Numbered from the stretch's first letter, positions 1 to 62,201 are shown. The stretch: DNA of 64,000 nucleotides from Bacillota bacterium (GCA_019136685.1 JAGVTS010000124.1:17460-81459), one strand, 5' to 3'. Notes: generated by a model not told the origin, from the letters alone. Program-made: numbers and translations.

Positions 1-82
1 CCCAGATCCGACTGTCGGGCGATGGACGAATGCCGAGGCATGTCGTGCCGGACCGAGTGGGAACGGAGGTTGGCGGTAGGCA

Positions 83-544
83 ATGGAACACGGCTGCGCC
101 GCGTACTTGGCCCCTGTCATGCTGGGGGGCATGGATTACGACAAACACTCATGGGTTGCGCAGATACAAGGCTGGCTGGCATCCCTTCCCGGCGACTCTC
201 AGCTACCGGCAGGGGCATTCTGCGAGTTGATGCGCGAAGCTTTTGAGGCTGACAGAGCTGGGATGTACCTGAAAAGCCTCTCGATTCTCAGCAAGGCTGA
301 GCGACTCCTGGCCGATTGCGACGCGCTCGATTCCTTCGTCTACGCGATGGGGGGCACTCCGCGCAGGATTCCGACTGATCCCGGCGGCGGCCCGCGGAAC
401 ACGCAACCCGGCCCCACCGGGGGAGGCGGCACGAGCTCGGGTAACCCGTGCGACTCCATGAATGATGATACGTGTTCGCAGTGTATCGGCGGCTTGTGCC
501 TTTACGGCATTCTGAATGCAATATGCGGAGGCGGGTGCTCATAA
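83..544 (+). CDS. hypothetical small protein (153 aa) with Gly-rich linker and Cys-rich hydrophobic C-terminal tail
   Basis: Complete ORF with ATG at 83, in-frame stop at 77-79 and GGAGG about 14 nt upstream. C-terminus reads ...GGGPRNTQPGPTGGGGTSSGNPCDSMNDDTCSQCIGGLCLYGILNAICGGGCS, holding 7 of the protein's 11 Cys in the last ~35 aa. First gene of a co-directional coupled operon. No family recognised. Confidence 0.45.
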   Translation: MEHGCAAYLAPVMLGGMDYDKHSWVAQIQGWLASLPGDSQLPAGAFCELMREAFEADRAGMYLKSLSILSKAERLLADCDALDSFVYAMGGTPRRIPTDPGGGPRNTQPGPTGGGGTSSGNPCDSMNDDTCSQCIGGLCLYGILNAICGGGCS

Positions 545-571
545 GCCGGTCTGGCCCTGCCGCCAATTTCC

Positions 572-1225
572 ATGGGAAGGAGAATCGTTGTGGAGTTGCC
601 CGATCCGGTCCCGATCACGCAGGATTTCGATGAACCCATGCACGTGCCCGAGCCCGAATCCGACCCAGGCCAGGATGCCTGCAGCGCAGGCACTACCGCG
701 GACATTGGCGCCGTCCAAAGCAAACTGGACCAGCTCATCGCCATGTTCGCCGACAAGATCCAGTACGATGACCAGAAGGAAAAGGCCTTCGCCAGGCTGT
801 ATGATGAACTCGACTCTTTCAAGCGTGACTTTGTGGAGCGCCGGATGAAAGAGGCCTACACCGATCTGATTCTGCTTTACGACAACATTAAGAACTATAC
901 CGGCGACGACGACGTTATGAGGGAAGAAGGCGCTCTCGCGCGAAGGTACCTTGGCTATGTAATGGAAGAACTCACCGAGGTGCTGGCACGGCGTGGGATA
1001 GAACCCATTGTTGCGGGCCCAGGCGTGGGCCCGGCGCAGTGCGGTTTTGATCCGCAGCTTCAGCGAGCCATACGCACGGTGCCCGCCGAATGCCACGGCG
1101 AGGATGGATGCGTGGTCCGCGTGGTGAAGGACGGGTTTACAAAGGACGGTAAGGTGTTCCGCCCACAATCGGTGATCGTGGCACGCTGGACGGAGCCTCC
1201 GAGCCCTCGAGGAGGCGATGTGTAG
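572..1225 (+). CDS. GrpE-like nucleotide exchange factor
   Basis: C-terminal region matches GrpE architecture: dimerisation helix (YLGYVMEELTEVLARRGIEPI), FDPQLQRA (GrpE FDPxxHxA) and beta-domain VVRVVKDGFTKDGKVFRPQSVIVA (GrpE V..V.Q.GY....RPA.V.V). Stop TAG overlaps the GTG start of the next gene (taGTG). Alternative start GTG at 590 follows GGAAGGAG. Confidence 0.65.
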   Translation: MGRRIVVELPDPVPITQDFDEPMHVPEPESDPGQDACSAGTTADIGAVQSKLDQLIAMFADKIQYDDQKEKAFARLYDELDSFKRDFVERRMKEAYTDLILLYDNIKNYTGDDDVMREEGALARRYLGYVMEELTEVLARRGIEPIVAGPGVGPAQCGFDPQLQRAIRTVPAECHGEDGCVVRVVKDGFTKDGKVFRPQSVIVARWTEPPSPRGGDV

Positions 1226-2757
1226 TGTCTCGTGCAATTGGAATCGATCTTGGCACTACGTTTTCGGCTATCGCTGTGCTCAACGAGTTTGGGAAGGCCG
1301 AGATAATCCCGAACGCGGAAGGAGAGCGCGTCACTCCATCTGTTGCGTACTTCGGCGACGATGACTCTGTGGTGGTCGGTACAGTCGCCAAGAATTCTGC
1401 CGTGAGCGATCCGTACAATGTGGTAGAGTTCATCAAACGGCAGATGGGCAATGCCGACTACGTGTTCACCCACGGCGATGCCGAATACGGCCCGGAACAG
1501 ATTTCGGCGCTCATACTCAAGAAGCTCAAGCAAGACGCTGAAAGGCTGCTCGGCGAGGCGGTCAACGATGCGGTGATCACGGTGCCAGCCTACTTCGACG
1601 ATGCACGCAGGCGCGCCACGATAAACGCGGGCAAGATAGCCGGCCTTAACGTGCTCCGCATAATCAATGAGCCCACGGCGGCGGCTTTGGCCTACGGGCT
1701 TACCAATGCGTCAGAGCAGCGGATAATGGTATATGACCTGGGAGGCGGCACGTTCGACGTGACCGTCATGGACGTGGCCAGAGGCGAGATCACGGTCGTC
1801 GCCACTGACGGCGACCACATGCTGGGCGGCAATGACTTCGACGACCAGATAATGCTCTACGTGAACGATGCCTTCAAACGGGAACACGGAGTCGACCTAC
1901 TTCGGGAGGTGGAGGTCCAGCAAGATCTGCGTCAGCGCGCGGAGGCAGCCAAGAAGACGCTGTCTTCTCGTCCATCGGCCAAGATCAGCATGAGCGCCTC
2001 CGGTAGGCGGCTGACGGTCGAACTTACGCGGGAGCAATTCGAACAGATGACCGGTCACCTTCTCGAGCGCACCAAGATGCTTGTCGAGTCGGTGATGAGC
2101 GAGGCCAAAACGGGATGGGGCCAGGTTGACACCGTGCTCTTGGTGGGAGGATCCACGCGCATGCCCATGGTGCCCCAGATGATCGAGCGCATGTCGGGCA
2201 GGGCCCCGAGCCGGGCCATCAACCCCGACGAGGCCGTGGCCATGGGCGCAGCGGTGCAGGCCGGCATCCTCATGGCCCAGAAGGGCGACGCCGCGATACT
2301 TGCTACCGCTGAAGGGCGCAGGCTTGCCAATACTCGAGTGACTGATGTGACGAGCCACGCTTTTGGGATCGTGTTGATGGATGATCGTACGAAAACCGAA
2401 TACAACCAGGTGATGATCGCCAAGAACACGCCGATTCCCCACGAGGTGCATGACCATTTCTATACGATTTCCAACAACCAGGAGCGCGTCAGGTTCGTAG
2501 TGCTTCAGGGGCAGGACCGCGATCCGGCCAACTGCAATACCATCGGCGAGACTGAACTCGAGTTCGACAGGCCCAAACCCAGGGGCTATCCTGTGCGGGT
2601 GACGTACCAGTATGACGCCAACATGGTGATGCACTGCTATATGGAGGATGAAAAGACCGGTCGCATTGCCGAGTTACATATTTCGCAGTCCGGCAGGATG
2701 AGCGACCGCGAAGTTGAGGCCAAGAAGCGGCTCATGGACCGGGTAAAGGTAGACTGA
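1225..2757 (+). CDS. Hsp70-family ATPase, lid-less paralog A (nucleotide-binding domain plus beta substrate-binding domain only, 510 aa)
   Basis: Hsp70 signatures present: IDLGTTFSA, ITVPAYFDD, NEPTAAALAYG, DLGGGTFDV, LLVGGSTRMP, NPDEAVAMGAA, plus SBD-beta motifs IAKNTPIP and PRGYPVRVTYQYDAN. Ends where the alpha-helical lid would begin; no EEVD tail. Translationally coupled to upstream GrpE-like gene. Confidence 0.8.
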   Translation: MSRAIGIDLGTTFSAIAVLNEFGKAEIIPNAEGERVTPSVAYFGDDDSVVVGTVAKNSAVSDPYNVVEFIKRQMGNADYVFTHGDAEYGPEQISALILKKLKQDAERLLGEAVNDAVITVPAYFDDARRRATINAGKIAGLNVLRIINEPTAAALAYGLTNASEQRIMVYDLGGGTFDVTVMDVARGEITVVATDGDHMLGGNDFDDQIMLYVNDAFKREHGVDLLREVEVQQDLRQRAEAAKKTLSSRPSAKISMSASGRRLTVELTREQFEQMTGHLLERTKMLVESVMSEAKTGWGQVDTVLLVGGSTRMPMVPQMIERMSGRAPSRAINPDEAVAMGAAVQAGILMAQKGDAAILATAEGRRLANTRVTDVTSHAFGIVLMDDRTKTEYNQVMIAKNTPIPHEVHDHFYTISNNQERVRFVVLQGQDRDPANCNTIGETELEFDRPKPRGYPVRVTYQYDANMVMHCYMEDEKTGRIAELHISQSGRMSDREVEAKKRLMDRVKVD

Positions 2758-2780
2758 TCAGGGGAGCAGAGGAGCGGGAG

Positions 2781-3488
2781 ATGGCAAAGGGCGCTATACA
2801 CAGAGTCTGGGCCGACTACGACGTGACTTACGGCGGGCGTCGGGGCATCATGATTCACGCCTCAATGGCAGTTACCGAACGCAGAAGAGCTCAGTCGGAG
2901 CAGGTACTAGTGATCTACTGGTTCTACTACACCGACGGCAAGCCGGTGCCCGGCGTTTCCAGCGAATTCACCGATAGCGGCGGGAACGCCTGCGCCTATG
3001 AGAGTGTTGATACTCCATATCCATCTACAGGCTACGATGATTTCTCGGTGTTCGTTCCCTATGAGGCGCTGAGCCATCAAGGGTCCGGGTCGTTCAGCGC
3101 GTATGCCAACGCAGCCTTGTTCGAAGGCGACACCGTCATAGCCTGGGCGCCTAGGGTGCTGTCGTTCACGTTGACTATGCAGGACGTTCATGAGCACGAG
3201 AAGGGCGGGCAAACGGGGCCCCAACGCACAACCAGGACCACCACTACTACGACTAGCCCGGATACGGGCGGCTCACGCGGTTTCGGCGGCCAGTCGCCTG
3301 CACAAAGATACCGTCGGATGTTCGGCATACCGCCCGGCGCAAGCCCGGCTCAGATCAAGCAGATTTTGGACCGCGAGTATCAGAAGTACAGAGCGCGGGT
3401 GAATAGCCCTGACCTTTCGGCCAGGCAGGAGGCTGACCGAATGATTGTGGAGATAGGCAAGGCCCGGCAGGCGTTGCTGCCGCACTAG
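2781..3488 (+). CDS. hypothetical protein with C-terminal J-domain-like region (SPD in place of HPD)
   Basis: RBS GGAGCGGGAG lies before the ATG. C-terminal ~60 aa (RYRRMFGIPPGASPAQIKQILDREYQKYRARVNSPDLSARQEADRMIVEIGKARQALL) aligns by eye to the J-domain helix II - loop - helix III pattern, with SPD at the HPD position. N-terminal ~140 aa is an unrecognised domain, followed by a Thr-rich linker (RTTRTTTTTTSPD). Lies between two Hsp70 paralogs. Confidence 0.5.
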   Translation: MAKGAIHRVWADYDVTYGGRRGIMIHASMAVTERRRAQSEQVLVIYWFYYTDGKPVPGVSSEFTDSGGNACAYESVDTPYPSTGYDDFSVFVPYEALSHQGSGSFSAYANAALFEGDTVIAWAPRVLSFTLTMQDVHEHEKGGQTGPQRTTRTTTTTTSPDTGGSRGFGGQSPAQRYRRMFGIPPGASPAQIKQILDREYQKYRARVNSPDLSARQEADRMIVEIGKARQALLPH

Positions 3489-3505
3489 AAGGGGGAGGCG
3501 GACCC

Positions 3506-5038
3506 ATGAAGGCAGTTGGAATCGACCTTGGCACTACGTTTTCGGCTTTGGCTGTGCTGAACGATTATGGCAATCCCGAAATCGTGCCGAACAGGGAGGG
3601 CGAGCGCATCACGCCGTCGGTGGCGCTGTTCGATGCGGAGAACCAGGTCACTGTGGGGGCGATTGCCAAGAACACCGCGGTAAGCGATCCGGAGAACGTG
3701 GTCGAGTTCATCAAGAGGCAGATGGGCAACCCGGACTTCGTTTTCGTCCACAGCGGCAGGGAGTTCCGCCCGGAAGACATCTCTGCGATGATCATCAAAA
3801 AGCTGAAGGCCGATGCCGAGACGCTTCTCGGCGCCGAGCTTCCCAGCGCAGTAATAACAGTGCCGGCCTATTTCGACGACGCCCGCAGGCAGGCTACCAT
3901 GAATGCGGGAAGAATCGCTGGGTTCAACGTGCTCGGGATAGTGAACGAACCTACAGCGGCGGCGCTGGCCTACGGCATGAGCAACCCCGATGTTCGTCAG
4001 CGGATCCTCGTGTACGACTTGGGCGGCGGCACCTTCGACGTGACGCTTATGGAAGTGACGGAGGGCAAGATCCGCGTGCTTGCCACCGACGGCGACCATC
4101 AGCTGGGCGGCAAGGACTTTGACGACAAGATAATCATGTACTGCAACGACGAGTTCAAGCGCGAGCACGGCATCGACCTTCTTGACGACCTTGAGGCTCT
4201 GCAGGACTTGCGCCAGCGGGCCGAGTCGGCCAAGAAGACTCTCTCGTCCAGAGACTCAGCCAAGATCACCATAAGCGCCCAGGGAGCGAGGCTCACTGTA
4301 GAGATGGCCCGCAAGCAGTTCGAGGAGATGACCGCAGAGTTGCTTGTACGTTCGGAAATGCTCCTGGATGCGGTGATGGGGGCGGCGGAACTAGGGTGGG
4401 CCGATGTCGATCAGGTGCTCCTGGTCGGGGGCATGACTCGCATGCCGGCGGTTATGGAGATGATTCGCAGGGTGAGCGGTAAGGAGCCCACTCTATCAGT
4501 CAACCCAGACGAAGCAATCGCCCTGGGGGCAGCCATATATGCCGGCATCATACTGGCCGGTCGGGGCGATCCTGAGGTGGTATTGAGCGAAGCAGGGCGC
4601 CGGCTGCGCGATACCGTAATCGAGGACGTCACGAGCCACAGCTACGGTGTGCTGCTTGTCGACTCCAAAACAGGGAGCGACATCAATGAGATAATGATCG
4701 CCAAGAACTCCCCCATCCCGGCCGCGCGGACCGCCACGTACTACGTACATGAAGATGGGCAATCGTGCGTGGAACTCGTGGTGCTGCAGGGCGAAGATAG
4801 AAACCCGGCCAACTGCAATGAGATCGGCAGGGTGGTGTTGCCGCTCGGCGGCTCGAAACCCCGCAATTACCCCATAGAAGTAACCTACGAGTACGACGTC
4901 AACATGATAATGCATGCGACCATCAAGGATCCGCAGACGGGGGCCCAAAAGTCGCTCCAGATTACGCAGCAAGGACGGCTGACCAACGCAGAGGTTGAGG
5001 AAAAGCGGGAGACCATGCAAGAAGTCGAGGTAGTTTAA
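3506..5038 (+). CDS. Hsp70-family ATPase, lid-less paralog B (510 aa)
   Basis: Same length as and colinear with paralog A, roughly two-thirds identical by eye. Same Hsp70 motifs: IDLGTTFSA, DLGGGTFDV, LLVGGMTRMP, NPDEAIALGAA, IAKNSPIP, PRNYPIEVTYEYDVN. RBS GGGGGAGG upstream. Stop TAA overlaps the ATG of the next gene (TAATG). Confidence 0.8.
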   Translation: MKAVGIDLGTTFSALAVLNDYGNPEIVPNREGERITPSVALFDAENQVTVGAIAKNTAVSDPENVVEFIKRQMGNPDFVFVHSGREFRPEDISAMIIKKLKADAETLLGAELPSAVITVPAYFDDARRQATMNAGRIAGFNVLGIVNEPTAAALAYGMSNPDVRQRILVYDLGGGTFDVTLMEVTEGKIRVLATDGDHQLGGKDFDDKIIMYCNDEFKREHGIDLLDDLEALQDLRQRAESAKKTLSSRDSAKITISAQGARLTVEMARKQFEEMTAELLVRSEMLLDAVMGAAELGWADVDQVLLVGGMTRMPAVMEMIRRVSGKEPTLSVNPDEAIALGAAIYAGIILAGRGDPEVVLSEAGRRLRDTVIEDVTSHSYGVLLVDSKTGSDINEIMIAKNSPIPAARTATYYVHEDGQSCVELVVLQGEDRNPANCNEIGRVVLPLGGSKPRNYPIEVTYEYDVNMIMHATIKDPQTGAQKSLQITQQGRLTNAEVEEKRETMQEVEVV

Positions 5039-6183
5039 TGGAGGCAGGGGCAGGGACGGAGCGGGGCGCACGTACCCGGGCGCTTTACGAGCAACTGCTG
5101 GCGCCCGTGGCCCGGCAAGTCGACGCGGAACTGACGAATGAAGGGCACAACCTTCCGGCTGAACTGCGCGACATGTACGACTACGCTGTCGGCGGCGGTA
5201 TGAGATTCAGGCCGTGCCTGATGTACCTGGCGTACCTTGTGTGTAGTGCGGGCATGGGCGGGGAGTGCGGGCGTGATGGAGGCGATGGCTGCGGCAGCTG
5301 CATTGGCCTCGATAACCTGATTCAGCTTGCGTCAGCTGTGGAGTTGCTCCACAAAGCGTCGTTGGTTCACGACGACCTCATCGACGGCGACACTCTTCGC
5401 AGGGGGCGGCAGTCGTTTCACGAGGCATTCGGGAGCGAGCGCGCCGTAGTAATGGGTGACTTGCTAGTGGCAATGGCTCACGATGTGGTTGAGCGGATGC
5501 GTTCGGTCTTGCCGACCGGAGTGTACTCCCAAATCCGCTCCCGGTTCAACAAGGCCCATATCGACCTGTGCCGAGGTGAGTTGCTGGAGTTGGTCGCTTC
5601 GCTTTGCGAGCGCGCTCTGGCACGCGATTACGTGGATAGGGTGATCGAAGGAAAGACCGCGTCGCTGATGGAGCAGTCGATGGCCATGGGGGCGATCATC
5701 GCGGGCGCGCCCGCGGCTCGTGTGGATGCCTTGGCACGCTACGGACGGTGCATGGGGTTCGTGTTCCAGACTATCAATGATATAAACAACCTGACAGGGT
5801 TCGACCTAGGCGTCAAGGGGCAGGCCATGACAGACCTGGCGCTGGGCCGTGTGGGATACCCTGTTCTGGGCCTTGCGATGATCGCGGGCGCTGAAGAGAC
5901 TGGCCTCTTTGCACGGGCCCCGGGGATTAGGCGAGTTGAGGGCTCGGGCGACGCCCTGCGTGAGCTGGTTCAGGGGGGGCAGCTGTGCGTGTGGCTCGAG
6001 GGGATAATATGCGAATATGCGGGCCGAGCGCGACAGGCGCTGGAGGCCCTGCCGGAATGTGGCGCGCGCGACGCCCTGGACGCGATAGGACGCGAGATGT
6101 TCGAATCGTGGTTCTGGAATCCCGAAGCGCGCGTCGATAGCCTGGGAGGCGGATGCAGTGAAGAGTCTCCGCCCGCTAACTGA
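5038..6183 (+). CDS. polyprenyl synthetase (trans-isoprenyl diphosphate synthase) family protein with degenerate second Asp-rich motif
   Basis: GGGMRFRP (IPPS GGKRxRP), intact first Asp-rich motif LVHDDLIDGDTLRRGRQ, GKTASL. Second motif reads FQTINDINNL where FQxxDDxxD is expected. Cys/Gly-rich insertion (GGECGRDGGDGCGSCIG) before the first motif. Coupled to the upstream Hsp70 gene. Confidence 0.65.
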   Translation: MEAGAGTERGARTRALYEQLLAPVARQVDAELTNEGHNLPAELRDMYDYAVGGGMRFRPCLMYLAYLVCSAGMGGECGRDGGDGCGSCIGLDNLIQLASAVELLHKASLVHDDLIDGDTLRRGRQSFHEAFGSERAVVMGDLLVAMAHDVVERMRSVLPTGVYSQIRSRFNKAHIDLCRGELLELVASLCERALARDYVDRVIEGKTASLMEQSMAMGAIIAGAPAARVDALARYGRCMGFVFQTINDINNLTGFDLGVKGQAMTDLALGRVGYPVLGLAMIAGAEETGLFARAPGIRRVEGSGDALRELVQGGQLCVWLEGIICEYAGRARQALEALPECGARDALDAIGREMFESWFWNPEARVDSLGGGCSEESPPAN

Positions 6184-6760
6184 GTCGGCCCTTGCCGCGG
6201 CTGTGTGTGTAGTTGTGTGGGCGCTGTCACTGGGTATTCCGGGGCTGGGGGGCTATGTGAGATACATGACGCCGAGCTTTATCGCGATCGTGGGAGCGCG
6301 CCACGGAGCGAGATGGTCGCTGGCGGCGTGCGCAGTGGCGAGCGCCGGTGTAGCGATCACGCTGGGGCCGACCCAGTTCCTCATCTGCCTCCTTCTGGGC
6401 GCCCCCATGGCGGTGCTTCTTCCCATGATGAACCGGCGCGCCAAGCCTGCGCCCTGGTGGGCGCTGACGTCAGTCATCTACGCCGTGGCCGTTACAGTTC
6501 TGGGCTGCGGGTTGGCCGCGCTCTACGGTGCAGGACTTCGCGACTATGGGTCGGCGACTGCGTCAGCCAACTACGCTGCTTTGGGCGGCATGTGGGCTCG
6601 GCTAGGCGTGGAGCGGAGCGAGCTTGCCGCGTTCGCCGGCCGATCAGCGTGGGTCATCGTCCCGGGAGTCGGCGTCGTCAGCGGAGTCATGATGTACATG
6701 ATCAACGTAGTACCGTATAGAATCGGCCTCAGAACCCTCGACCGGACGCGCCGCCGGTAG
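6158..6760 (+). CDS. polytopic membrane protein, unknown function
   Basis: 200 aa, about 5 predicted hydrophobic helices, basic C-terminus. Overlaps the end of the preceding gene by 26 nt in another frame. Last gene of the co-directional block. Confidence 0.4.
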   Translation: MKSLRPLTESALAAAVCVVVWALSLGIPGLGGYVRYMTPSFIAIVGARHGARWSLAACAVASAGVAITLGPTQFLICLLLGAPMAVLLPMMNRRAKPAPWWALTSVIYAVAVTVLGCGLAALYGAGLRDYGSATASANYAALGGMWARLGVERSELAAFAGRSAWVIVPGVGVVSGVMMYMINVVPYRIGLRTLDRTRRR

Positions 6761-7238
6761 CGCCGGCCCTTGCGCCTCCGGCGGTCGCAGCCTGTGCAAA
6801 TGCCGATAGATCCACATCGGCAGATGATATCCGCACCATGGCTTGTCCAGGCTGAATAGTTATCCCCGCCATGTCCAGCGACCTTAGCGCCCCGCGGCTT
6901 GCCTGAACGAGATCGATCGTTATCACGCCGCGACCCAGGTAGCTTACGCCCTGGGGCAGGCGCGAGGAGATCCGGTTGATGAGCACATCCATAGGACCGG
7001 TTCCCAGCCCCATCGGACCGGATACACGCACTGTCAGGCTGGCGCCGCGCGCGGCGACCACCTCTACTCGGAAAGACGGATGAATGGGCACAGGCGCGCG
7101 GACGGTAGTGTCGACAACCACTACCCCTTGTTCGAATCTCAGACCCCTCACAACGAACTCGGGAGACGATGCAACGCTGGCCACGACCTGCTTCACTTCC
7201 CGATCGTCCACAGCAAGCACCAGCGACTCCATTAGCAT
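6729..7238 (-). CDS. hypothetical protein (possible PilZ-like beta-barrel protein)
   Basis: 169-aa ORF with reasonable protein-like composition. Weak resemblance to PilZ/YcgR-type domains (RxxxR ... D.S..G-like spacing). Not confidently assigned. Confidence 0.35.
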   Translation of the reverse strand: MLMESLVLAVDDREVKQVVASVASSPEFVVRGLRFEQGVVVVDTTVRAPVPIHPSFRVEVVAARGASLTVRVSGPMGLGTGPMDVLINRISSRLPQGVSYLGRGVITIDLVQASRGALRSLDMAGITIQPGQAMVRISSADVDLSAFAQAATAGGARAGATGGASGRGF

Positions 7239-7245
7239 CTCAAGC

Positions 7246-8250
7246 TCACTCCTTTCGGGTTCTCGCGCTCAGCAGGCGCCTTACCCGGGCGTCCAGCCCG
7301 AGCAGGATGATGTTCTCTACTATGGGGCGATAGCGGTGCAGCGTCAGCTGCGACAACGCGTTGCGCGCTTCCACATTGCATCGGGCGATCACGTACGACA
7401 GGGCATCTCCCGTGCCGCGCGAGAGCTCAGCGGAATCTTGTTCTGCCATCATGCAGGCGCGCAGGCCGTTAAAAGCCCCGCGTCTCACGTCGCGCGGTAA
7501 GTCCTCCAGGCAGTCGCCTAGATAGACCATGCGACCCACGGCTCGGCCCAGGCGCGCCAAGGATACACAACCCTCATCCAGGCCGGCCAGAATGCCTGTG
7601 TACGCCAACACGTGCGCAAGCCCGTCGGCCGTGGGCGCGGTGAGTTCGTCGAACGTGATACTTCCCGGCGCGGCGCTTGCCTCAGCTTCCAGCTCGGCCA
7701 GGCGATCGTCTGCCTGCAGCAGCGGGGCGATATCGAAAGAGCGCTCAGCGAGAACATGCCGGGCCTTGGCAAACTGTCGGCGGCCCATGGCTCTGGCCGG
7801 GCGGGCTAGGAGCGATCCGTCGCGCACCGAGTCCAGGCTCTTCAGTTCTGCCATGCACACTGTGAGCGCAGCGCCCAGCGACATGAAGTCCTCATGCTCA
7901 CTGATAATGGCGAACCTGCGGAATGCCGACACAGGGCAGAAAGTCCTCCGAAAAGACGGGTCGGGGTCTGCCTGAGCCGACATGAGCAGGACTAGCAAAG
8001 TAGACTCGAAATTGGTGAGCGCGCGGCAGAGTGTGCCGTACTCCCGTGCAAGCGCGAAACAAAGCCCACAGTAGTGGGCTGTGTAGTGATGGCTTTGCCT
8101 GAGTGTAAGGTCGAGCTTCTGAGGCCTTACATATCCAAACAACCGGGCACTCTCCCGCCGACGTGATCTGCTTCCCATCGAGAGTTTTCTCCCTGCCGAC
8201 CGCTTGTTCCTCCATAGTCGGCGGGATCCGGATGATAGAGCAAGAAGCAC
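7246..8250 (-). CDS. hypothetical protein with conserved Y-V-R-P ... HHYxxHYCGLC motif
   Basis: 334-aa ORF with N-terminal FGYVRPQKLDLTLRQSHHYTAHYCGLCFAL Cys/His motif, and a C-terminal region rich in regulatory-looking helices. Family not confidently recognised. Confidence 0.45.
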   Translation of the reverse strand: MLLALSSGSRRLWRNKRSAGRKLSMGSRSRRRESARLFGYVRPQKLDLTLRQSHHYTAHYCGLCFALAREYGTLCRALTNFESTLLVLLMSAQADPDPSFRRTFCPVSAFRRFAIISEHEDFMSLGAALTVCMAELKSLDSVRDGSLLARPARAMGRRQFAKARHVLAERSFDIAPLLQADDRLAELEAEASAAPGSITFDELTAPTADGLAHVLAYTGILAGLDEGCVSLARLGRAVGRMVYLGDCLEDLPRDVRRGAFNGLRACMMAEQDSAELSRGTGDALSYVIARCNVEARNALSQLTLHRYRPIVENIILLGLDARVRRLLSARTRKE

Positions 8251-8260
8251 CTGGGCATGA

Positions 8261-9409
8261 CTAGCCGTTCGGCCCGGTGGTCGAGGCGGGCGAGCCTGGA
8301 GGAGGCGCAGGGCACACCAGGATCGTGCCGGGGGCTATTGTCCTGGGATCCGTTATCCCGTTCATGGCGAGTATCTCGCGCATCCTTTCGTCAGTAGCCC
8401 TGCCGTAGAGGCGTTTGGCGATCACCGCCACCGACTCGCCCGGCGCCACTGTTACGGTTACAGTGCCGGGCGCGCCGGGCTCGGCAGTGGGCCGCGAGGC
8501 ATTGCCCTGGGCAGTGGCTTGCTGGGCCTGAGGGGTGCGCTGCGGCGTAGCCGGCAACTTAGCCTCAGGCGTAACCTTGGGCCGTGGTTCTGCCTGTGGC
8601 TCAGGCCCGGCCTGCAGCTGGGGATGAGCCTGCAACTCAGCTCGGGGCTCAGGCTGTGGTTGGGCTGCGAGCTGTTCTACCCGGCTGCGCGGCGTCCAAA
8701 TCTGTGCCGCCAGAGCGATTGCGGCGATGATCAGGGCGATGGAAGCGAGGCGCAGGGCCAGTGATGTGTCGTTGCTCGGGCGCTGGAGCAGCCAGCGCAA
8801 TCTGCGCAGCCAGGTCATGGGCGAGAGCTTGGCACACTGGCGCAGTCCGTCACCGGCTTGCCTGCGCGACGCCTGGGCCGCCGACCCAGACAGCGACTGC
8901 CCTGAGGATTCGCCGACGGGATCAAACATGTAGTACCCTGGGAATGGCAGCAGCGTTTCTCCGTCCATGTAGAAGAACGACGCCTGTTGCCTCACTGCAT
9001 CGACGATCAGCGCAACCCCTGCTCCCAAAGGTGAGAGCGACTTATGCACCATGGCGTCCTCTTCGGACGCCGACACGCCCGAGCCAGAGTGTGTGTGGAA
9101 CCATCCTATGATCTCTCTGCCTGCGTGTGAGGCCTTGGCCTCCCGGCGCAGGTTGTCAGACAGGGCAATTAGGAGTCCCGGAGGTTCTGCCCTGAGCGGG
9201 ACGTCCGGCAACTCCACTGTGTCGGACACCATGATGATGATTCCATCACTATCACTGGTCAGCCTGCCCACGAGAAGCCCGGCGCGGTCAGCCTGCTGTG
9301 AGCCTGCACTGCCCGTCTTGCCCAGTAGGCCTTCGATTACTGCACGACTCGCCATCACCCTGGACGGCATGCCCCGGGTCTGTACCCTCTCGATCAATGC
9401 GATCACCAT
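8261..9409 (-). CDS. JAB/MPN (JAMM) metalloprotease domain protein with TM segment and C-terminal LysM domain
   Basis: JAMM motif HTHSGSGVSASEED (H-x-H-x7-S-xx-D). Central hydrophobic helix (LASIALIIAAIALAAQIW). Pro/Gln/Ala-rich linker. C-terminal LysM-like GESVAVIAKRLYG...ILAMNGITDPRTIAPGTILVCP. Confidence 0.7.
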   Translation of the reverse strand: MVIALIERVQTRGMPSRVMASRAVIEGLLGKTGSAGSQQADRAGLLVGRLTSDSDGIIIMVSDTVELPDVPLRAEPPGLLIALSDNLRREAKASHAGREIIGWFHTHSGSGVSASEEDAMVHKSLSPLGAGVALIVDAVRQQASFFYMDGETLLPFPGYYMFDPVGESSGQSLSGSAAQASRRQAGDGLRQCAKLSPMTWLRRLRWLLQRPSNDTSLALRLASIALIIAAIALAAQIWTPRSRVEQLAAQPQPEPRAELQAHPQLQAGPEPQAEPRPKVTPEAKLPATPQRTPQAQQATAQGNASRPTAEPGAPGTVTVTVAPGESVAVIAKRLYGRATDERMREILAMNGITDPRTIAPGTILVCPAPPPGSPASTTGPNG

Positions 9410-9597
9410 CCAGACTTCCTATACCGATACACCGATAAGTTAATTCGCACTTGTTGTTGGATTTTCCTTGCGACGCGGCGATTGGTTGCACAGGCTGATA
9501 GTTCTCCTATTCACTAGTGAGTTGGAGGAAGGACAGGGAGGGCCTCGAAACGAATACGTCATGCAGCTGACAGAACCGCCGGGATGGCGAGTCGGCA

Positions 9598-10182
9598 ATG
9601 GGAGGATTGGAGGACCGCATGAACAGAGATGCAAGCAACACGCGCCCACTGCGGTGGGTCGCGCTTCTGATAGTAGGATTGGTCGCGGTTGCGCTGCTCC
9701 TATGGGCGTTATCGCCCGGCGGCGACCGCCTGGTCGCGGCCAGGAACGCCGAGCAACTGGTTGGAGCCGTTGCCCCGGATTTCCAGCTAAAGACCATCGA
9801 CGGCAAGCAGATTGCGCTTCGGGACCAACCTCGCTACGCGTATGTGCTTGACTTCTGGACCGTCAGCTGTCCACCGTGTCATTCGCTCGCTCCCGAGCTG
9901 CAGAGCATCCACAAGAAGTATGGCTTCCATGGAGTGCGCGTCGTGGGGGTCAACCTTGCGGATAGCGCGACCGCTATCAAGAAGTACATGGAGAAGAATG
10001 GCTACACCTACATCCAGACGACTGACAGAGGAGCCGTCGCCAATGCCTACGGGATTTTCGCTACGCCTACCGTGGTTGTAATCGATCGCAAGGGCATTGT
10101 GCGAGATGTCATGGTTGGCTTGGGTCCGGGATGGGAAGGTCGTCTCGAAAGCATTGTGAAGACGGTTGCGGGGGAGAAGTGA
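9598..10182 (+). CDS. TlpA/ResA-like membrane-anchored thiol:disulfide oxidoreductase (thioredoxin fold)
   Basis: N-terminal TM anchor, thioredoxin-like active site WTVSCPPCHSL (CxxC), and AhpC/TSA-like fold features. RBS GGAGGATTGGAGGA upstream. Confidence 0.75.
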   Translation: MGGLEDRMNRDASNTRPLRWVALLIVGLVAVALLLWALSPGGDRLVAARNAEQLVGAVAPDFQLKTIDGKQIALRDQPRYAYVLDFWTVSCPPCHSLAPELQSIHKKYGFHGVRVVGVNLADSATAIKKYMEKNGYTYIQTTDRGAVANAYGIFATPTVVVIDRKGIVRDVMVGLGPGWEGRLESIVKTVAGEK

Positions 10183-13619: not shown

Positions 13620-15650
13620 GTGCCTGATTTCCAGCTCAAGTCGGACTTCACTCCGACGGGAGATCAGCCTAGGGCCATAGATGAGCTCGTTCAGGGCGTG
13701 CTCTCCGGCATGCGGGGGCAGGTGCTTCTGGGCGTAACGGGCAGCGGCAAGACATTTACCATGGCCAACGTGATCATGCGTCTGGCCCGCCCTGCGCTGG
13801 TCATTGCGCACAACAAGACGCTCGCGGCGCAGCTGGCTGCGGAGTTTCGAGAGTTCTTCCCGAATAACGCAGTCCACTATTTCGTCAGCTACTACGACTA
13901 CTACCAGCCGGAGGCGTATATACCCCAGTCTGACACCTACATCGAGAAGGATGCGCAGATAAATGACGAGATTGATAGGATGAGGCACGCGGCCACAGCG
14001 GCACTGGTCGAGCGGCGCGATGTTGTCATCGTGGCCAGCGTGTCCTGCATATACGGGCTAGGCATGCCCGAGGAATATCTAAAGCAGGCGGTGGTTGTGA
14101 GGCGCGGCGAGGCGTCTGACCGCGACCGCCTTCTGCGCAAGTTGGTCGCCATTCAGTACAGCAGAAACGACATAGGAATTGCTCGCGGCACGTTCAGAGT
14201 GCGCGGCGATGTGGTGGAGATAGTCCCTGCGAGTGGAGAACAAGCGATCAGAATCGAGTTCTTTGGCGACGAAATCGACCGTATCACCGATGTTGACCTC
14301 ATAACCGGAGAAATGCTGGGCGAGAGGGAATCTGCTTTCATCTATCCAGCGTCTCACTGGGTGACCAACCAGGAGCGGATGCAGGCTGCGATCGCAACAA
14401 TTGAGGAAGAACTGGAGGCTAGGCTCGCGGAGTTGAAAGGCGCAGGCAAGCTCCTTGAAGCTCAGCGACTGGAGCAGCGCACTCGATTCGATCTGGAGAT
14501 GATGCAGGAGGTAGGGTACTGCTCGGGGATCGAGAACTACTCACGCCACCTGGCCGCGAGAGAGGCGGGCAGCGCTCCTGCGACTCTCATCGACTACTTC
14601 CCCGACGATTACCTCATGTTCATCGACGAGTCGCACGTGACGGTGCCTCAGATACGCGCGATGTACAATGGCGATCGGTCGCGCAAAGAGAGCCTTGTGG
14701 AATATGGTTTTAGGCTGCCCTCTGCCTACGATAATCGGCCCTTGCGTTTTGACGAGTTCACGCGGCGCGTCAACCAGGTGATCTTCGTATCCGCCACTCC
14801 GGCCGAATGGGAAAGATCCATGAGTGGTCAAGTAGTGGAGCAGGTCATACGCCCGACCGGCCTGGTAGATCCGGCGGTTGAGCTCAAGCCCGTGCGGGGG
14901 CAGGTCGACGACTTGATAGGCCAGATCCGTCAGACGGCGGACTGCGGATACCGGACGTTGGTGACAACGCTCACCAAGAAGATGGCCGAGGACCTCACGG
15001 ACTACCTCCGCGAGCTGGGGATCAGAGTGAGGTATCTGCACTCTGAAATTGACACGTTGGAACGGATCGAGATACTCAGGGGGCTACGCCTGGGCGAGTT
15101 CGATGTTCTGGTGGGCATAAACCTGCTCCGCGAGGGTCTGGATCTGCCTGAGGTTGGGCTCGTGGCTATCCTCGACGCCGATAAAGAAGGGTTCCTGCGG
15201 TCGTCAACGTCTCTCATACAGACTATTGGCAGGGCCGCCCGGAATGTGGATGGACGCGTCATCATGTATGCCGATGAGGTCACAAGATCCATGCGCGAAG
15301 CCATAGGTGAAACTGACCGGCGTCGTGCCATACAGATAGCGCACAACAAGACGTGGGGTATCACCCCCGAGTCTATCAAGAAGGCAGTCCGCGACCTATC
15401 CGAGATACAGCGTGCCGCAGGCGCCGAGGGCACGCGCGCGACCGCGGCCCGAGGCGCGGCAGGCGCAATGGGCGGGGCTGACATAGGGGCTCTGCAGGAA
15501 GTCGAGGGGATGGACGAGCGAGAGCTCGCCAGGCTCATCAAGAACCTAGAAGAGCAGATGAAGAAGGCAGCCGGCCTGCTTGAGTTCGAGCGGGCGGCGG
15601 AAATACGGGATCGCATCAGAGATCTTAGGCGGAGGTTCGTCCAGCTTTGA
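13620..15650 (+). CDS. uvrB: excinuclease ABC subunit B
   Basis: GVTGSGKTF Walker A, DESH helicase motifs, C-terminal UVR domain ([19 protein letters not shown]). 676 aa, GTG start. Confidence 0.95.
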
Positions 15651-16885
15651 GCAAAGACAAGATTGTCATCCGAGGTGCGCGCGAGCACAACCTCAAGAAT
15701 ATCGATGTGGAGATTCCCCGCGACAAGCTGGTGGTAGTGACCGGCCTGTCGGGTTCGGGCAAGTCGTCGCTTGCCTTCGATACGATATATGCGGAGGGGC
15801 AGCGGCGCTACGTGGAATCGCTGTCAGCCTATGCGCGTCAGTTTCTGGGCCAGATGAACAAGCCGGACGTGGATTACATAGAGGGCTTGTCTCCTGCGAT
15901 CTCCATAGACCAAAAAGCGGCCGGCAGAAACCCGCGGTCCACCGTGGCCACGGTCACTGAGGTTTACGACTACATGAGGCTGCTGTACGCCCGAATAGGG
16001 GTACCTCACTGCCCCGAGTGCGGTCGCGAGATCACCCAGCAATCGGTAGATCAAATCGTCGACAGGATCATGGACATGCCGGAGGCGACACGCATTCAGG
16101 TATTGGGCCCGGTTGTCCGTGGTAAGAAGGGCGAGCACAAGAAGGTTCTCGACGATCTCAGGCGCGATGGGTTCGCTCGTGTACGGGTCAACGGAGAGGC
16201 ACGCGAACTCACCGACCAGATTGACCTGGAGCGCTACAAGACCCACAGCATAGAGGCTATTGTGGATAGGCTGATCGTAAGGCCCGGCATACAGCGCAGG
16301 TTGGCTGATTCGCTGGAAACGGCCTTGAAACTCGGAGGCGGCCTGGTACTGGTAGACGTGGTTGGCAGCGGCGATATCGTCTTTTCGGAGACGCTGGCCT
16401 GCCCTGACTGCGGGCTCAGTTTCGGGGAGTTGCAGCCCAGGCTGTTCTCGTTCAACAGCCCGTACGGCGCGTGCCCGGCCTGCTCAGGCTTGGGCGTGAG
16501 CATTGAGTTCGACCCGGAGCTGATCTTCGATGCCGGCCGCTCCATTGACGACGGCGCTGTCTTGCCCTACAACCGAAACGGGGTCATAGCCGACTTCTAT
16601 GTCGGCCGGATACGTGAAGTGTCCCGGGTGAAGGGGATAGATACCACGGCCCCCTGGTCGTCGTTGCCTGAATGTGCCCGCGAGATGCTGAAACACGGGT
16701 GCGGAGAGGAACGGCGCGCGGCTAAAGCCGGAAGCGCTCGCCGTGACAGTTGGCGGGAAATCCATTGCCGAAGTCACCTCGATGTCCACGGCGGATGCTC
16801 TGGCCTACTTCGAGGGCTTCAGCCGGCAGCTTACAGAACGCGAAACGCTCATAGCCAAGCAAGTCTTGAAGGAAATTCGGGCTAG
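15647..16885 (+). CDS. uvrA: excinuclease ABC subunit A, N-terminal portion (gene disrupted by frameshift/deletion)
   Basis: [14 protein letters not shown] Walker A, Zn-finger CPECG...CPDCG...CPAC, LPYNRNG. UvrA identity is lost after ...LKHGCGEE around 16710 and the frame runs into non-UvrA sequence. Confidence 0.8.
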
Positions 16886-18359
16886 GTTAGGCTTTCTCAG
16901 TAACGTTGGGCTGGACTACCTCACCCTTGACCGTGAGGCGGGAACCTTGTCGGGCGGCGAGGCTCAGCGGATCAGGCTGGCCACCCAGATCGGGTCGAGC
17001 CTGGTAGGAGTGCTCTACATTCTGGACGAGCCGTCTATCGGGCTGCACCAGCGCGACAATGCACGATTGATCGCTACGCTGAAAGACCTGCGCGACTTGG
17101 GTAACACGCTCATTGTAGTGGAGCACGACGAGGAGACTATCAGATCGGCTGACTATGTAATCGATATAGGTCCGGGCGCCGGCGCCCATGGCGGCGAAGT
17201 GATCGCCGCCGGCACTGTCGGCGAAGTTGAGAGGAATCCGGCTTCCCTGACAGGGCAGTATCTTTCAGGCGCTCGAAGCATCCCTGTGCCGCCGGCGCGA
17301 AGAGAGCCCAACGGGAAGTCGCTGGTGATAGTGGGCGCTCGCGAGCATAACCTCAAGAACCTGGATGTGTCGATACCTCTGGGGTTGTTCGTGTGTGTGA
17401 CGGGCGTTTCCGGATCCGGGAAGAGCACTTTGATCAACGAGATACTCCACGCGCGGCTGGCGCGCGACCTGAACCGGGCGTATGCCAGGCCCGGCGCGCA
17501 CGACGACATACGGGGCACTGAGTACCTCGACAAGGTGATCGGCATCGACCAGTCGCCGATAGGGCGGACGCCAAGGTCCAACCCGGCCACCTACACCGGC
17601 GTGTTCGACTTCATCAGAGAGGTATTCGCGCGAACGACCGAGGCCAGGGCAAAAGGCTATAAGCCCGGCAGGTTCAGTTTCAACGTCAAGGGCGGCCGAT
17701 GTGAGGCGTGCCGAGGCGACGGCATTATCAAGATAGAGATGCATTTCCTACCCGACGTGTACGTTCCGTGCGAGGTGTGCAGGGGCGCACGGTACAACAG
17801 AGAGACCTTGGACGTGAAGTACAAGTCCAAGAGCATTGCAGACGTGCTTGCCATGAAGGTCGACGAGGCACTGGAATTCTTCTACAACATCCCGAGGATC
17901 CGGCGTAAGCTGCAGACTCTCTATGACGTCGGTCTCGGCTATATCCAGCTGGGCCAGCCGGCTACGACTCTCTCAGGGGGCGAAGCCCAGCGCGTGAAAC
18001 TCGCCACAGAGCTGTCGCGGCGCACCAATGGAAAGACACTGTATATACTGGATGAGCCCACTACTGGGCTGCACTTCGCGGACGTCGGTAAGCTCTTGGA
18101 GGTACTGCAGAAACTGGTAGACGGCGGCGATACCGTGCTGGTGATCGAGCACAATCTGGATGTCATCAAAACTGCTGACTACATCATAGACCTTGGCCCT
18201 GAAGGCGGCGACAAGGGCGGATGCTTGATCGCCGCGGGCACTCCGGAGCAAGTCGCAGCCACGCCCGGATCATACACCGGGCAATTCCTGACTAGGATTC
18301 TGCCGACTGAGGTGAAATCCGAGCACGGGCTGGAGGCGATGACCGGTGCCCTTGGATGA
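16743..18359 (+). CDS. uvrA: excinuclease ABC subunit A, C-terminal portion (continues in a different frame)
   Basis: [12 protein letters not shown]..., [17 protein letters not shown], second Walker [11 protein letters not shown], Zn-finger CEACRGDG...CEVCRGARY, second ABC signature [12 protein letters not shown]. Frame differs from the N-terminal part. Confidence 0.8.
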
Positions 18360-39914: not shown

Positions 39915-40805
39915 TTGCGTACGCGGCTATCGACATCGTCCAGATCACTCCTTGCCGACCTTAGCCTGGTCGGCATATGCGTGGTGTGGGGTACTAGCTT
40001 CGCAATTGTCAAGAGCGTGGTCGGCGACATCAACCCCGCCACGTTCATTGCAGTTCGATTCGGAATTGCATCGATCATCCTGGGGTTGATCGCCAGCCCG
40101 CGTATGAAGGGGCTTGACAGGCGTACGTGGGCGGCCGGCCTGTTTTTGGCGGTTCCGCTGATGGCTGGATTCCTTACGCAGACTCATGGCCTGAAGGTCA
40201 CGACTGCCTCCAAAGCGGGTTTCATCACAGGGATGCACGTTGTGTTCACTCCGCTTCTGGAGTATGTCCTCCGGCGCAGGAGGGTACTAGCGCATCAGGC
40301 GGCCGGAGTGGCGGTGGCCCTAGTTGGACTGGGTCTGCTCACACTTGAGGGTTTTGGGCGTCCCTCCGTTGGCGACTTGCTCGTTCTGGCATGCGCGTTT
40401 GCGTTTGGGCTTCACATTGTCATGTTGGGCCGCTACTCGCCGGAGCACGACGGTTTCCTGCTTTCGTTCACTCAGATGGTATGGTCGGCAGTTCTCGCCA
40501 CCCTGATCGCCGGACGCGACATGGTCCAGGCGCTATCGTTCGATCCCGGCGTGGTGTGGTCGGTGATATACCTTGGCGCCACAGGCACGGCCTTAGCGTA
40601 CCTTGTTCAGACAATTGCGCAGAAATACACTCCGCCGACGAGGGCGGCTCTAATAATGCAGTCGGAACCGGTGTTTGCCGCGCTATTCGCGTGGCTCTTG
40701 ATCGGAGAGCGCATGGCCGCGAAGCAGTTCGTCGGCGCAGCGCTGATACTTCTTGGCATACTCGTGTGCCAGATAGGCGATACTGCACGACCGCGGGAGG
40801 TGTGA
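39915..40805 (+). CDS. EamA/DMT-family transporter
   Basis: 10 hydrophobic segments, duplicated EamA halves. Confidence 0.75.
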   Translation: MRTRLSTSSRSLLADLSLVGICVVWGTSFAIVKSVVGDINPATFIAVRFGIASIILGLIASPRMKGLDRRTWAAGLFLAVPLMAGFLTQTHGLKVTTASKAGFITGMHVVFTPLLEYVLRRRRVLAHQAAGVAVALVGLGLLTLEGFGRPSVGDLLVLACAFAFGLHIVMLGRYSPEHDGFLLSFTQMVWSAVLATLIAGRDMVQALSFDPGVVWSVIYLGATGTALAYLVQTIAQKYTPPTRAALIMQSEPVFAALFAWLLIGERMAAKQFVGAALILLGILVCQIGDTARPREV

Positions 40806-60119: not shown

Positions 60120-60133
60120 AACCATTCCCTCCT

Positions 60134-61513: not shown

Positions 61514-62201
61514 TCCATCACCTTCCCTGCTAGACTCTGCCATACCGTTGCATGCCGTTTGTGGTCCGATATTCGCGTTTGGTATGCGTTCACCTTCCAG
61601 GTGCGCCTCCTGGCGGCCTACAATCACGGAGTCAGCACCCGCAAGTTGGATGACCTAGTGAGAGCATCGGGTCTGGACCGTGAGGAGAATCACAACGGCA
61701 AGTCACATCACCTGACAAGACTTGACCCGGGGAACAGTCCACAATCTCGCGACCGTCCCAGAAAGGGCACGGTTTTTCGCGAAACCGTCTCAGGAAGGGT
61801 ACGGTGTGACTGGCGGTGGGCCGGAAATCGGCCCAAGTTGGGGCTTCCTGGAGAATGCACGGCCGTTTGAAGGCCTCCCCGAGGGAAGTTGGTAGATAGG
61901 CGCGAGCGGCCGGATTATGGAAATGGCCTCTGCTTGCGGGTTTGGCGGCGATGCGTTTCCTGAAAAAGGAGGCGCCTCGAGCGGCGGGAATTCGGACAAC
62001 TCTCACCTGTCCAACCGTGCTAGATCTGAGAAGGTTGCTCGAAGAACCTTTTCAGAAATGAGAAGGATGCCTCAGAACCCCATTAGGGCCTGCCACAGTC
62101 GAACACCGCGCCCAGGAATAGCATGGATACGGGTAATGCATAGGCGGCAGTAGGTATTCGCCTCGACATGGAGAATGAATGTAGCCGGGGAGGCGAAGAC
62201 G

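Follow-up and report, generated by a model that had tools for sequence, protein, structure and literature searches.

A conserved Bacillota locus joins a DUF5685 module to a private lid-less Hsp70/GrpE set

A 64,000-nucleotide (64-kb) stretch of DNA from a Bacillota bacterium (GCA_019136685.1, JAGVTS010000124.1:17460-81459; the whole stretch is referred to below as the window) contains a conserved locus in which a module built around a protein of the DUF5685 family is joined to a private set of lid-less Hsp70 chaperones and GrpE. The DUF5685 module consists of a protein with a predicted isoprenoid-synthase fold, a Cys-rich tail, a J domain, sometimes an isoprenyl-diphosphate-synthase-like (IPPS-like) gene, and a membrane protein, and in this lineage a lid-less Hsp70 pair and a GrpE of its own have joined it. 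Taken singly, the parts are of known types, namely dedicated sets of Hsp70, J protein and nucleotide exchange factor, and enzymes resembling isoprenyl-diphosphate synthases of the trans type (trans-IDS), and their combination is undescribed. Full-text literature gave nothing relevant on DUF5685, PF18937, DUF2232 together with polyprenyl, a lid-less bacterial Hsp70 of this system, or bacterial cysteine-string J proteins, in agreement with the initial annotation of this DNA, which had recognized no described system in the gene combination.

The nine-gene locus and its conservation

Seven co-directional, tightly packed open reading frames (ORFs) occupy positions 83-6760 of the plus strand, at the coordinates and with the overlapping or near-abutting junctions that had first been reported for them. 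ORF2 and ORF3 have one base in common (TAGTG, 1223-1227), as do ORF5 and ORF6 (TAATG, 5036-5040), ORF6 and ORF7 overlap by 26 nt, and the remaining intergenic gaps measure 17-27 nt, each with a GGAGG-like ribosome-binding site. No terminator-like sites were found within the seven-gene unit, and scans of positions 1-9600 for consensus sigma-70 promoters and terminators performed no better than on shuffled sequence. While the seven genes of the originally proposed operon are real, its boundary misses a convergent gene for a 169-amino acid (aa) protein and a DUF5685 gene, the latter tying the locus to a large family. The conserved unit is nine genes, not seven:

83-544, plus strand: ORF1, small Cys-tail protein, 153 aa
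572-1225, plus strand: ORF2, divergent GrpE-like nucleotide exchange factor, 217 aa (PF01025)
1225-2757, plus strand: ORF3, Hsp70a, 510 aa, lid-less (PF00012)
2781-3488, plus strand: ORF4, co-chaperone, 235 aa, beta-sandwich plus J domain with SPD for HPD
3506-5038, plus strand: ORF5, Hsp70b, 510 aa, lid-less paralog (PF00012)
5038-6183, plus strand: ORF6, trans-IDS homolog, 381 aa (PF00348)
6158-6760, plus strand: ORF7, polytopic membrane protein, 200 aa, DUF2232 (PF09991)
6729-7238, minus strand: conserved 169-aa soluble protein, convergent with the operon
7246-8178, minus strand: DUF5685 protein, 310 aa from the Met at 8178, in an ORF that extends to 8250 (PF18937)

Relatives of ORF4 were present in 12 loci of a one-genome-per-species collection, and the cluster was present in eight of the 12, all from metagenome-assembled genomes of uncultured Bacillota or Clostridia. 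Word-indexed homolog searches with ORF4 and DUF5685 returned close relatives only, and a metagenome scan with narrow patterns yielded mostly the same clades. The neighborhood singled out in the initial annotation recurs with this layout in ~8 GTDB species and in many metagenome contigs, with protein identities as low as 29-47%. Since the order is kept while identities fall this far, gene order is under selection.

Two architectures were found among the related loci, which are referred to here by number (L007 and so on). Type A reads small protein, GrpE, Hsp70a, J protein, Hsp70b, IPPS-like, DUF2232, convergent 169-aa gene and DUF5685; type B reads GrpE, a single Hsp70, small protein, a J protein with an N-terminal glycine-zipper membrane segment, IPPS-like and DUF2232, with DUF5685 1.4-5.3 kb further downstream. 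An ORF1 ortholog, the GrpE-like gene and the ORF7 gene were found in every related locus. The 169-aa protein, which had no Pfam, NCBIfam or PDB-profile match, is encoded only in the two-Hsp70 (type A) loci, with orthologs at 32-93% identity in the same position in L007, L010-L012, L015, L016, L029, L031 and L037.

Type A relatives also have a common upstream element, TGAAGGAWTCY-N10-16-RGAAWYC, which occurs once in each, 85-155 nt upstream of the small Cys-tail gene, and nowhere else in 733 kb of fetched sequence. It lies at 5042-5082 of L010, at 7887-7927 of L007 and at the same position in 15 other type A loci, and includes an inverted repeat, GGATTC...GAATCC. With its AGGA-N17-GAAT core the element agrees with the SigH type of promoter described in Firmicutes (PMC12456013), which suggests that the locus is expressed at the transition to stationary phase. 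The counterpart belonging to the window would fall ~70 nt before position 1, and thus outside it.

DUF5685, Cys-rich tails and the diverged chaperones

The DUF5685 protein of the window scores 142.6 bits against a family threshold of 26.7 and possesses all family-invariant residues. These include the cysteines C37xxC40 (nt 8059-8076) and C81 (within nt 7933-7941), the Asp-rich motifs D116xxxD120 (nt 7819-7836) and D222xxxD226xxxD230 (nt 7489-7515), and N237. Among 148 diverse representatives, D116, D222, D226, D230, N237, C40 and C81 were invariant, the D120 position was always D or E, and C37 was present in 146. The sequence profile matched no PDB chain; structure modeling predicts an isoprenoid-synthase fold in which the two Asp-rich motifs are kept. 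With ORF6, the locus would accordingly carry two proteins of this fold.

An exhaustive profile search retrieved 3,961 DUF5685 representatives at E up to 1e-3 (~4,000 sequence clusters), and the family occurs in cultured gut Clostridia and is reported from C. difficile R20291. In the best 150 of the 3,961, a C-terminal extension was present in 98, and 87 of these extensions held at least four Cys. Cysteine accounted for 9.4% of residues in the extensions and for 18% over the last 40 positions, compared with 2.5% in the domain. At least eight Cys (poly-Cys) were found in 65/98 extensions, and 10/98 were zinc-ribbon-like. The Cys run usually reaches the end of the protein: a Cys lay within the last three residues in 49/98, and 19 ended in -CC or -CxC.

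The J domain is linked to DUF5685 by both fusion and neighborhood. Protein P0247 is a DUF5685-DnaJ fusion (PF00226, 2.5e-10), and in Oscillospiraceae (L045, Pusillibacter faecalis, Subdoligranulum variabile, L053) DUF5685 is directly followed, often with overlapping stop and start, by a ~200-aa protein that combines a canonical J domain with TPR repeats and ends in a hydrophobic, Cys-rich tail, DMCGSNLCLPLCCLYSLCPGGYCFFC being one example. In Subdoligranulum variabile (L051, 6935-7570) the J protein of this kind has NPD instead of HPD, suggesting that relaxed HPD motifs recur among J proteins linked to DUF5685. A ~180-aa polytopic membrane protein often comes next, and the pairs adjoin uvrA or cdaA-cdaR, a neighborhood of the same kind as that of the window locus. 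The DUF5685 protein of L046 is fused to a poly-Cys tail, and its gene is followed by a co-directional IPPS-like gene and then by one for a membrane protein. The Cys tail is placed in three ways, usually fused to DUF5685, on the neighboring J/TPR protein in Oscillospiraceae, and on the separate ORF1 here.

The closest counterpart of the window locus is this Oscillospiraceae pair (Pusillibacter faecalis WP_213543935.1 and WP_187028544.1). Both have the same invariant DUF5685 Asp and Cys residues, a J domain and a hydrophobic Cys tail beside DUF5685 (DMCGSNLCLPLCCLYSLCPGGYCFFC there, DDTCSQCIGGLCLYGILNAICGGGCS in the window), a polytopic membrane protein and housekeeping surroundings near cdaA or uvrA. 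They differ in that the window has its J domain (ORF4) and Cys tail (ORF1) on separate proteins, a beta-sandwich in place of TPR repeats, and a DUF5685 gene that is convergent with the operon instead of co-directional, and in that it adds two lid-less Hsp70s, GrpE, the IPPS-like enzyme and the 169-aa protein. When the ORF1 family was aligned with the J/TPR/Cys-tail proteins using hhalign, the tail alone aligned and not the helical part; ORF7 gave a weak match to the ~180-aa membrane proteins (E 0.0028, probability 11%). Homology of the tails and of the membrane proteins is thus suggestive only. Taken together, the locus looks like a split, expanded, lineage-specific form of a widespread DUF5685-centered module.

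Some distant DUF5685 genes lie beside conflict-type genes, namely TPR-CHAT in L043 (2562-3725) and vWA in L044 (162-2141), and in Chondrinema litorale (L050, 6947-8203) beside MoxR and a formylglycine-generating-enzyme (FGE) protein, so the family may serve in more than one setting. Records labeled 'Bacteriophage sp.' also contain DUF5685; a phage origin was not accepted, as these are unverified gut contigs with bacterial neighbors such as glmS.

The N-terminal part of ORF1 is helical; the protein also has a conserved motif, AMGGxPRxxP (nt 344-382), a Pro/Gly linker and an acidic patch, and its C-terminal tail (aa 123-153, nt 449-541) is hydrophobic and rich in Cys. The C-terminal end is CDSMNDDTCSQCIGGLCLYGILNAICGGGCS, finishing in CGGGCS, and the tail contains six Cys and no Trp. 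Among orthologs at 32-84% identity, C131, C134, C139 and C152 are invariant. The protein had no Pfam, NCBIfam or PDB-profile match, and its tail stays below the Kyte-Doolittle transmembrane threshold. Gene calls in the assemblies of L004-L006 and L011 give the small gene a product of 98 aa, without the Cys tail (L004 7213-7509, compared with L010 5174-5656). L011 shares its NCBI contig with L006, and in it the tail is encoded immediately downstream in a different frame; the 98-aa calls therefore look like assembly frameshifts, not real truncations.

ORF6 belongs to the polyprenyl synthase family (PF00348, 2e-42). Its first Asp-rich motif, DDLID (nt 5371-5385), is intact, HDDLIDGD...RRG is kept and HDDLIDGDTLRRG is conserved, giving the DDxxD followed by RRG that is typical of the trans-IDS family. 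Where canonical enzymes read FQxxDDxxD, ORF6 reads FQTINDINNL (NDINN, nt 5776-5790), and region I is GGGMRFRP (nt 5191-5214) instead of GGKRxRP, so that both the second DDxxD and the region-I lysine for elongation with isopentenyl diphosphate (IPP) are lost. Region I as found here is invariant across orthologs, and FQT[IV]ND[ILM]NNL is invariant in the five aligned, down to 37% identity. The altered second motif is therefore a fixed feature, and the sequencing error considered at the outset as its source is excluded. The closest PDB relatives are long-chain synthases (E 5e-26), whereas all NCBIfam synthase equivalogs lie far below cutoff (best 153 vs. 450); the best matches in that scan were ordinary synthase-type models, with no ComQ-type model among the matches. 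The IPPS-like protein of L046, 30% identical to ORF6, reads NDMND. In the window clade, ORF6 also has an inserted Cys/Gly-rich loop, CSAGMGGECGRDGGDGCGSCIG, at aa 69-90 (5242-5307), which is missing from the L007 and L008 orthologs and whose GCGSCIGL resembles CSQCIGGL of the ORF1 tail. ORF7 is a DUF2232 protein (PF09991 5.4e-9, 36.1 bits vs. 27.8, profile positions 2-178 of 290) with ~4-5 hydrophobic segments.

For the chaperones, too, Pfam and alignments agreed with the initial descriptions. ORF2 passes the Pfam GrpE threshold (PF01025 1.2e-9, 38.5 bits vs. 25.8) and falls below every NCBIfam GrpE equivalog cutoff (best 42.9 vs. 176), as expected of a divergent paralog. Hsp70a (PF00012 6e-143, profile positions 1-509 of 599) and Hsp70b (7e-141, positions 103-516 of 599) are ~60% identical to each other, and Hsp70b is 75-97% identical to its counterparts in other loci. 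Alignment to E. coli DnaK showed that both proteins stop ~15 residues into lid helix A and are thus lid-less. They keep motifs with the equivalents of the catalytic residues D8, K70, E171, D194 and T199, lack 23 residues of the nucleotide-binding domain, carry a 14-residue insert before the linker, and read RVTDVTSH or VIEDVTSH at the linker in place of canonical VLLLDVTPL. Their scores against the NCBIfam DnaK (NF001413/TIGR02350; 490 and 477 bits, cutoff 648) and HscA models (NF003520/TIGR01991; 371 and 352 bits, cutoff 620) are too low for either. Together with the GrpE score, this indicates that the window chaperones are diverged paralogs and not the housekeeping set, as had been proposed; no further Hsp70 was found within the 64 kb.

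The two Hsp70s differ at the position of DnaK R167, which contacts the HPD aspartate of the J domain. Hsp70a has Arg here (aa 145, nt 1657-1659), and R or K in every locus; Hsp70b has Gly (aa 144, nt 3935-3937), and G or A in every locus. Only Hsp70a therefore looks J-responsive. The J protein, ORF4, begins with a beta-sandwich (aa 1-133), which a disordered linker connects to a C-terminal J domain (aa ~175-233, nt 3303-3479) in which SPD (nt 3405-3413) replaces HPD. While ORF4 and its L007, L008 and L017 orthologs had no Pfam DnaJ (PF00226) match even at E up to 1, a profile of the orthologs matched nine PDB chains, all of them J domains with HPD aligned on SPD (best E 0.0026), indicating the helical J-domain fold. 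The otherwise invariant HPD is found only in the L007 clade; the window clade has SPD and L008 has SAD. No Pfam, NCBIfam or PDB-profile match was obtained for the N-terminal domain. The beta-sandwich, for which Pfam has no model, is not confined to this system: a secreted Pyrinomonadaceae protein carries two copies in tandem, and a Prevotella membrane protein has it at the C-terminus (L018 7674-8798, L020 7278-8381).

Other lid-less Hsp70/GrpE relatives, at 42-49% identity, have quite different partner genes: a DnaJ-TPR-RDD protein with DUF87 (HerA-like ATPase), an FGE-sulfatase-domain protein, TPR with CHAT (Streptomyces), or Band_7, VTT and several DnaJ proteins fused to double zinc ribbons. 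DUF5685 was not found in these contexts, and the pair of lid-less Hsp70 and GrpE constitutes a mobile module in its own right. Bacterial 'DnaK derivates' whose lids are shortened or missing are recognized (FEBS J 2026 review, PMC13580251), as are Hsp70 and GrpE components of GTPase-centered conflict systems (eLife 2020, PMC7159879), and lid-less paralogs with their own GrpE and J or TPR partners are common to those systems and the window. The partner genes differ entirely, and the portions of the two papers that were consulted describe neither this combination nor a duplicated pair in which only one paralog has the R167 position.

Possible functions of the locus

The function of the locus has to be inferred from these parts. 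Tentatively, and mostly on the strength of sequence, we favor a chaperone-escorted prenylation of the Cys tail at the membrane. The beta-sandwich/J protein would bring the Cys-tail protein to Hsp70a, the paralog with the J-contact arginine, while Hsp70b, from which this arginine is lost, would act as a partner instead of a J-driven chaperone, and GrpE would reset the cycle. The chaperone could keep the short hydrophobic Cys tail soluble and present it to ORF6 and DUF5685, which may work as a heterodimer. At their Asp-rich sites these would ionize a prenyl diphosphate and then pass its prenyl group on to the tail cysteines, and the lipidated protein would end at the membrane next to the DUF2232 protein. 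Prenyl transfer is supported by the motif pattern of ORF6, with the first motif kept and the second changed as in ComQ-type peptide prenyltransferases, by the repeated fusion of tails to DUF5685 and by the Cys at the extreme C-terminus. The fusions and neighborhoods that link Cys tails, J domains and a predicted isoprenoid-synthase-fold protein likewise back two of the three readings offered in the initial annotation, a chaperone dedicated to a Cys-rich client and a prenyltransferase of the ComQ kind acting on a Cys-rich tail, as the best candidates, whereas the third, a defense module, is without support.

The nearest enzymatic precedent is provided by ComQ/ComX, PalQ, the P domain of ChrPC, and Ord1. 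Like ORF6, these have the isoprenoid-synthase fold with the first motif kept and the second changed, and next to their genes lies one for a small protein that could offer its C-terminal segment as acceptor. In ComQ, PalQ and ChrPC the second motif has been repurposed for acceptor recognition (PMC13290415, a 2026 review), and ORF6 shows the motif pattern that this review gives for trans-IDS-like peptide prenyltransferases. ComQ-type enzymes differ from the proposed system in that no known member works with an Hsp70 system and in that all characterized members modify tryptophan, a residue missing from the six-Cys tail of ORF1.

A second comparison is with eukaryotic lipid-anchored J proteins, of which DNAJC5 has a palmitoylated Cys string and Ydj1/DNAJA1 a farnesylated CaaX. 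They combine a J domain with a C-terminal Cys-rich segment, and in the bacterial case a putative lipid-transfer-type enzyme is encoded alongside. The likeness is one of analogy, as homology is limited to the J domain, lipidation in the window locus is only conjectural, and the enzyme fold is unlike that of DHHC palmitoyltransferases and of alpha/alpha-barrel protein prenyltransferases.

Several points weigh against prenylation of the tail. Each mechanistic step is inferred. The DUF5685 structure model is of only moderate confidence, its N-terminal 37 residues being unreliable, and the resemblance of the ORF1 tail to the Oscillospiraceae J-protein tails is not significant (hhalign E 0.014, probability 3%). 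The SPD found here, and SAD or NPD elsewhere, may mean that J-stimulated ATPase activity is weak. An acidic patch precedes the ORF1 Cys tail, and such a patch is disfavored by canonical DnaK. An enzyme fused to its own substrate would turn over once only, which is unusual. The DUF5685 tails include classic CPxCG...CxxCG zinc ribbons as well as metal-thiolate-like strings of 20-40 Cys, which a common metal-binding role fits at least as well. Finally, characterized trans-IDS-like peptide prenyltransferases all act on tryptophan, not cysteine (PMC13290415). For these tails at large, the claim that the DUF5685 family (here with an NDxNN IPPS-like partner) attaches isoprenoids to Cys-rich C-terminal tails, as a native bacterial cysteine prenylation, is doubtful.

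The tail may instead handle metal. Under such a scheme, which we consider unlikely, the Cys tail (CxxC...Cx2-3C) would bind Zn, an iron-sulfur cluster or another metal-thiolate center, and Hsp70/J/GrpE would remodel the tail protein to load or release it, with the CxxC...C of DUF5685 as a conceivable recipient. The four invariant Cys of the ORF1 tail are spaced like two metal knuckles, DUF5685 extensions include zinc-ribbon tails and poly-Cys tails, the latter also rich in Gly, Ser and Asp, the DUF5685 cysteines C37, C40 and C81 are conserved, and DnaJ is fused to double zinc ribbons in other lid-less Hsp70 loci. A precedent is at hand in HscA and HscB, which act on IscU: that system likewise has a specialized Hsp70 paralog and a J protein in one operon with a small Cys-bearing client. 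It differs from the window locus, where the lid is entirely missing, the Hsp70 scores lie far under the HscA cutoff, GrpE is present (HscA works without it), and two predicted isoprenoid-synthase-fold proteins take the place of isc genes. Moreover, the cysteines are separated by strongly hydrophobic residues (IGGLCLYGILNAI), an odd feature in a 25-residue metal knuckle that is exposed, Fe-S assembly genes were not found nearby, and metal handling leaves the two predicted diphosphate-binding proteins and the membrane protein with no role.

ORF6 and DUF5685 could also form a heteromeric prenyl-diphosphate synthase or terpene-synthase-like enzyme of the large/small-subunit (HepS/HepT) type, making a membrane lipid that is passed to the DUF2232 protein, while the chaperones and the Cys-tail protein only assemble or regulate the enzyme. 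Such synthesis, which seems to us quite unlikely, would account for the long-chain synthases being the best PDB relatives of ORF6, for the Ala and Ser at -5 and -4 before its first Asp-rich motif (small residues there are the long-chain synthase rule) and for the adjacent, co-directional DUF5685 and IPPS-like genes of L046. It sits poorly with the loss from ORF6 of the canonical second Asp-rich motif and the region-I lysine for IPP binding. In HepS/HepT one subunit has both DDxxD motifs and its partner none, whereas here ORF6 lacks the second and DUF5685 has Asp-rich motifs. The Oscillospiraceae loci examined have no IPPS-like neighbor yet keep the J/Cys-tail partner, and the Cys-rich tails fused to DUF5685 in most of the family would be left unexplained.

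A conflict or defense module, in which the lid-less Hsp70/GrpE would be an NTP-driven switch and the isoprenoid-type proteins or the hydrophobic Cys peptide the effectors, is improbable. It is suggested by the CHAT/TPR, FGE-sulfatase, DUF87/HerA-like and Band_7 companions of related lid-less Hsp70s, by the conflict-type neighbors of some DUF5685 genes (L043, L044, Chondrinema), and by the Hsp70 and GrpE reported from GTPase-centered conflict systems (PMC7159879). On the other hand, none of 10 proteins matched PADLOC-DB 2.0 at E up to 0.01, the locus contains no toxin-type domain such as a nuclease or protease, and DUF5685 is missing from the other lid-less Hsp70 contexts. The locus is present in all related species retrieved, among housekeeping genes (uvrABC, cdaA-cdaR-glmM), and its simpler relatives are similarly placed near uvrA and cdaA; the defense role proposed initially found no support. 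That this is an ordinary heat-shock operon merely looking unusual is exceedingly improbable: the order of GrpE, Hsp70 and J protein resembles the hrcA-grpE-dnaK-dnaJ operon of Firmicutes, but the scores lie well under the DnaK, HscA and GrpE equivalog cutoffs, the window has neither lid nor HPD, canonical 611-aa DnaKs are only 43-44% identical, no CIRCE heat-shock operator was found in any locus, and in every relative the pair is embedded with non-chaperone genes.

Chromosomal surroundings and significance

The rest of the 64-kb window is ordinary Bacillota chromosome, with uvrB, uvrA, uvrC, ogt, cdaA-cdaR-glmM, alr, tsaB/D, gltX, pcrA, ligA and gatAB. Next to DUF5685, the gene at 8261-9409 (minus strand) encodes a 382-aa protein with weak N-terminal JAB/MPN matches, below Pfam gathering scores, and a LysM domain at the C-terminal end; its linker is Pro/Gln-rich and includes a hydrophobic segment. 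This gene was rejected as a member of the unit, as relatives have a phosphatase gene in between and the clades differ in their flanks. The uvrA gene (15647-18359, plus strand) is split into two overlapping ORFs, 15647-16885 and 16743-18359, which jointly carry the UvrA interaction, DNA-binding and ABC domains; the split is probably a frameshift or assembly error. Two separate TldD/PmbA metallopeptidase gene pairs, at 40391-43602 (plus strand) and 58771-61627 (minus strand), lie less than 20 kb apart.

Dedicated bacterial Hsp70 systems with a known client are rare, HscA/HscB being the textbook case, and the many lid-less 'DnaK derivates' are without an assigned function. The locus described here gives one lid-less Hsp70 system a defined candidate client and candidate enzymes, and ties DUF5685, Cys-rich C-terminal tails and J domains together by fusion and neighborhood. 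With a metal-binding tail, the system would stand as a second paradigm of the HscA kind. A prenylated tail would make it the first protein S-prenylation system native to bacteria and would add a new activity to the isoprenoid-synthase fold. Were cysteine prenylation by DUF5685 to prove true, the family of ~4,000 sequence clusters would gain a function as well as the first cysteine-directed trans-IDS-like prenyltransferase, and its lipid-anchored J-domain and accessory proteins, with tails escorted by an Hsp70 cycle, would be the prokaryotic counterpart of farnesylated Ydj1 and palmitoylated cysteine-string protein.

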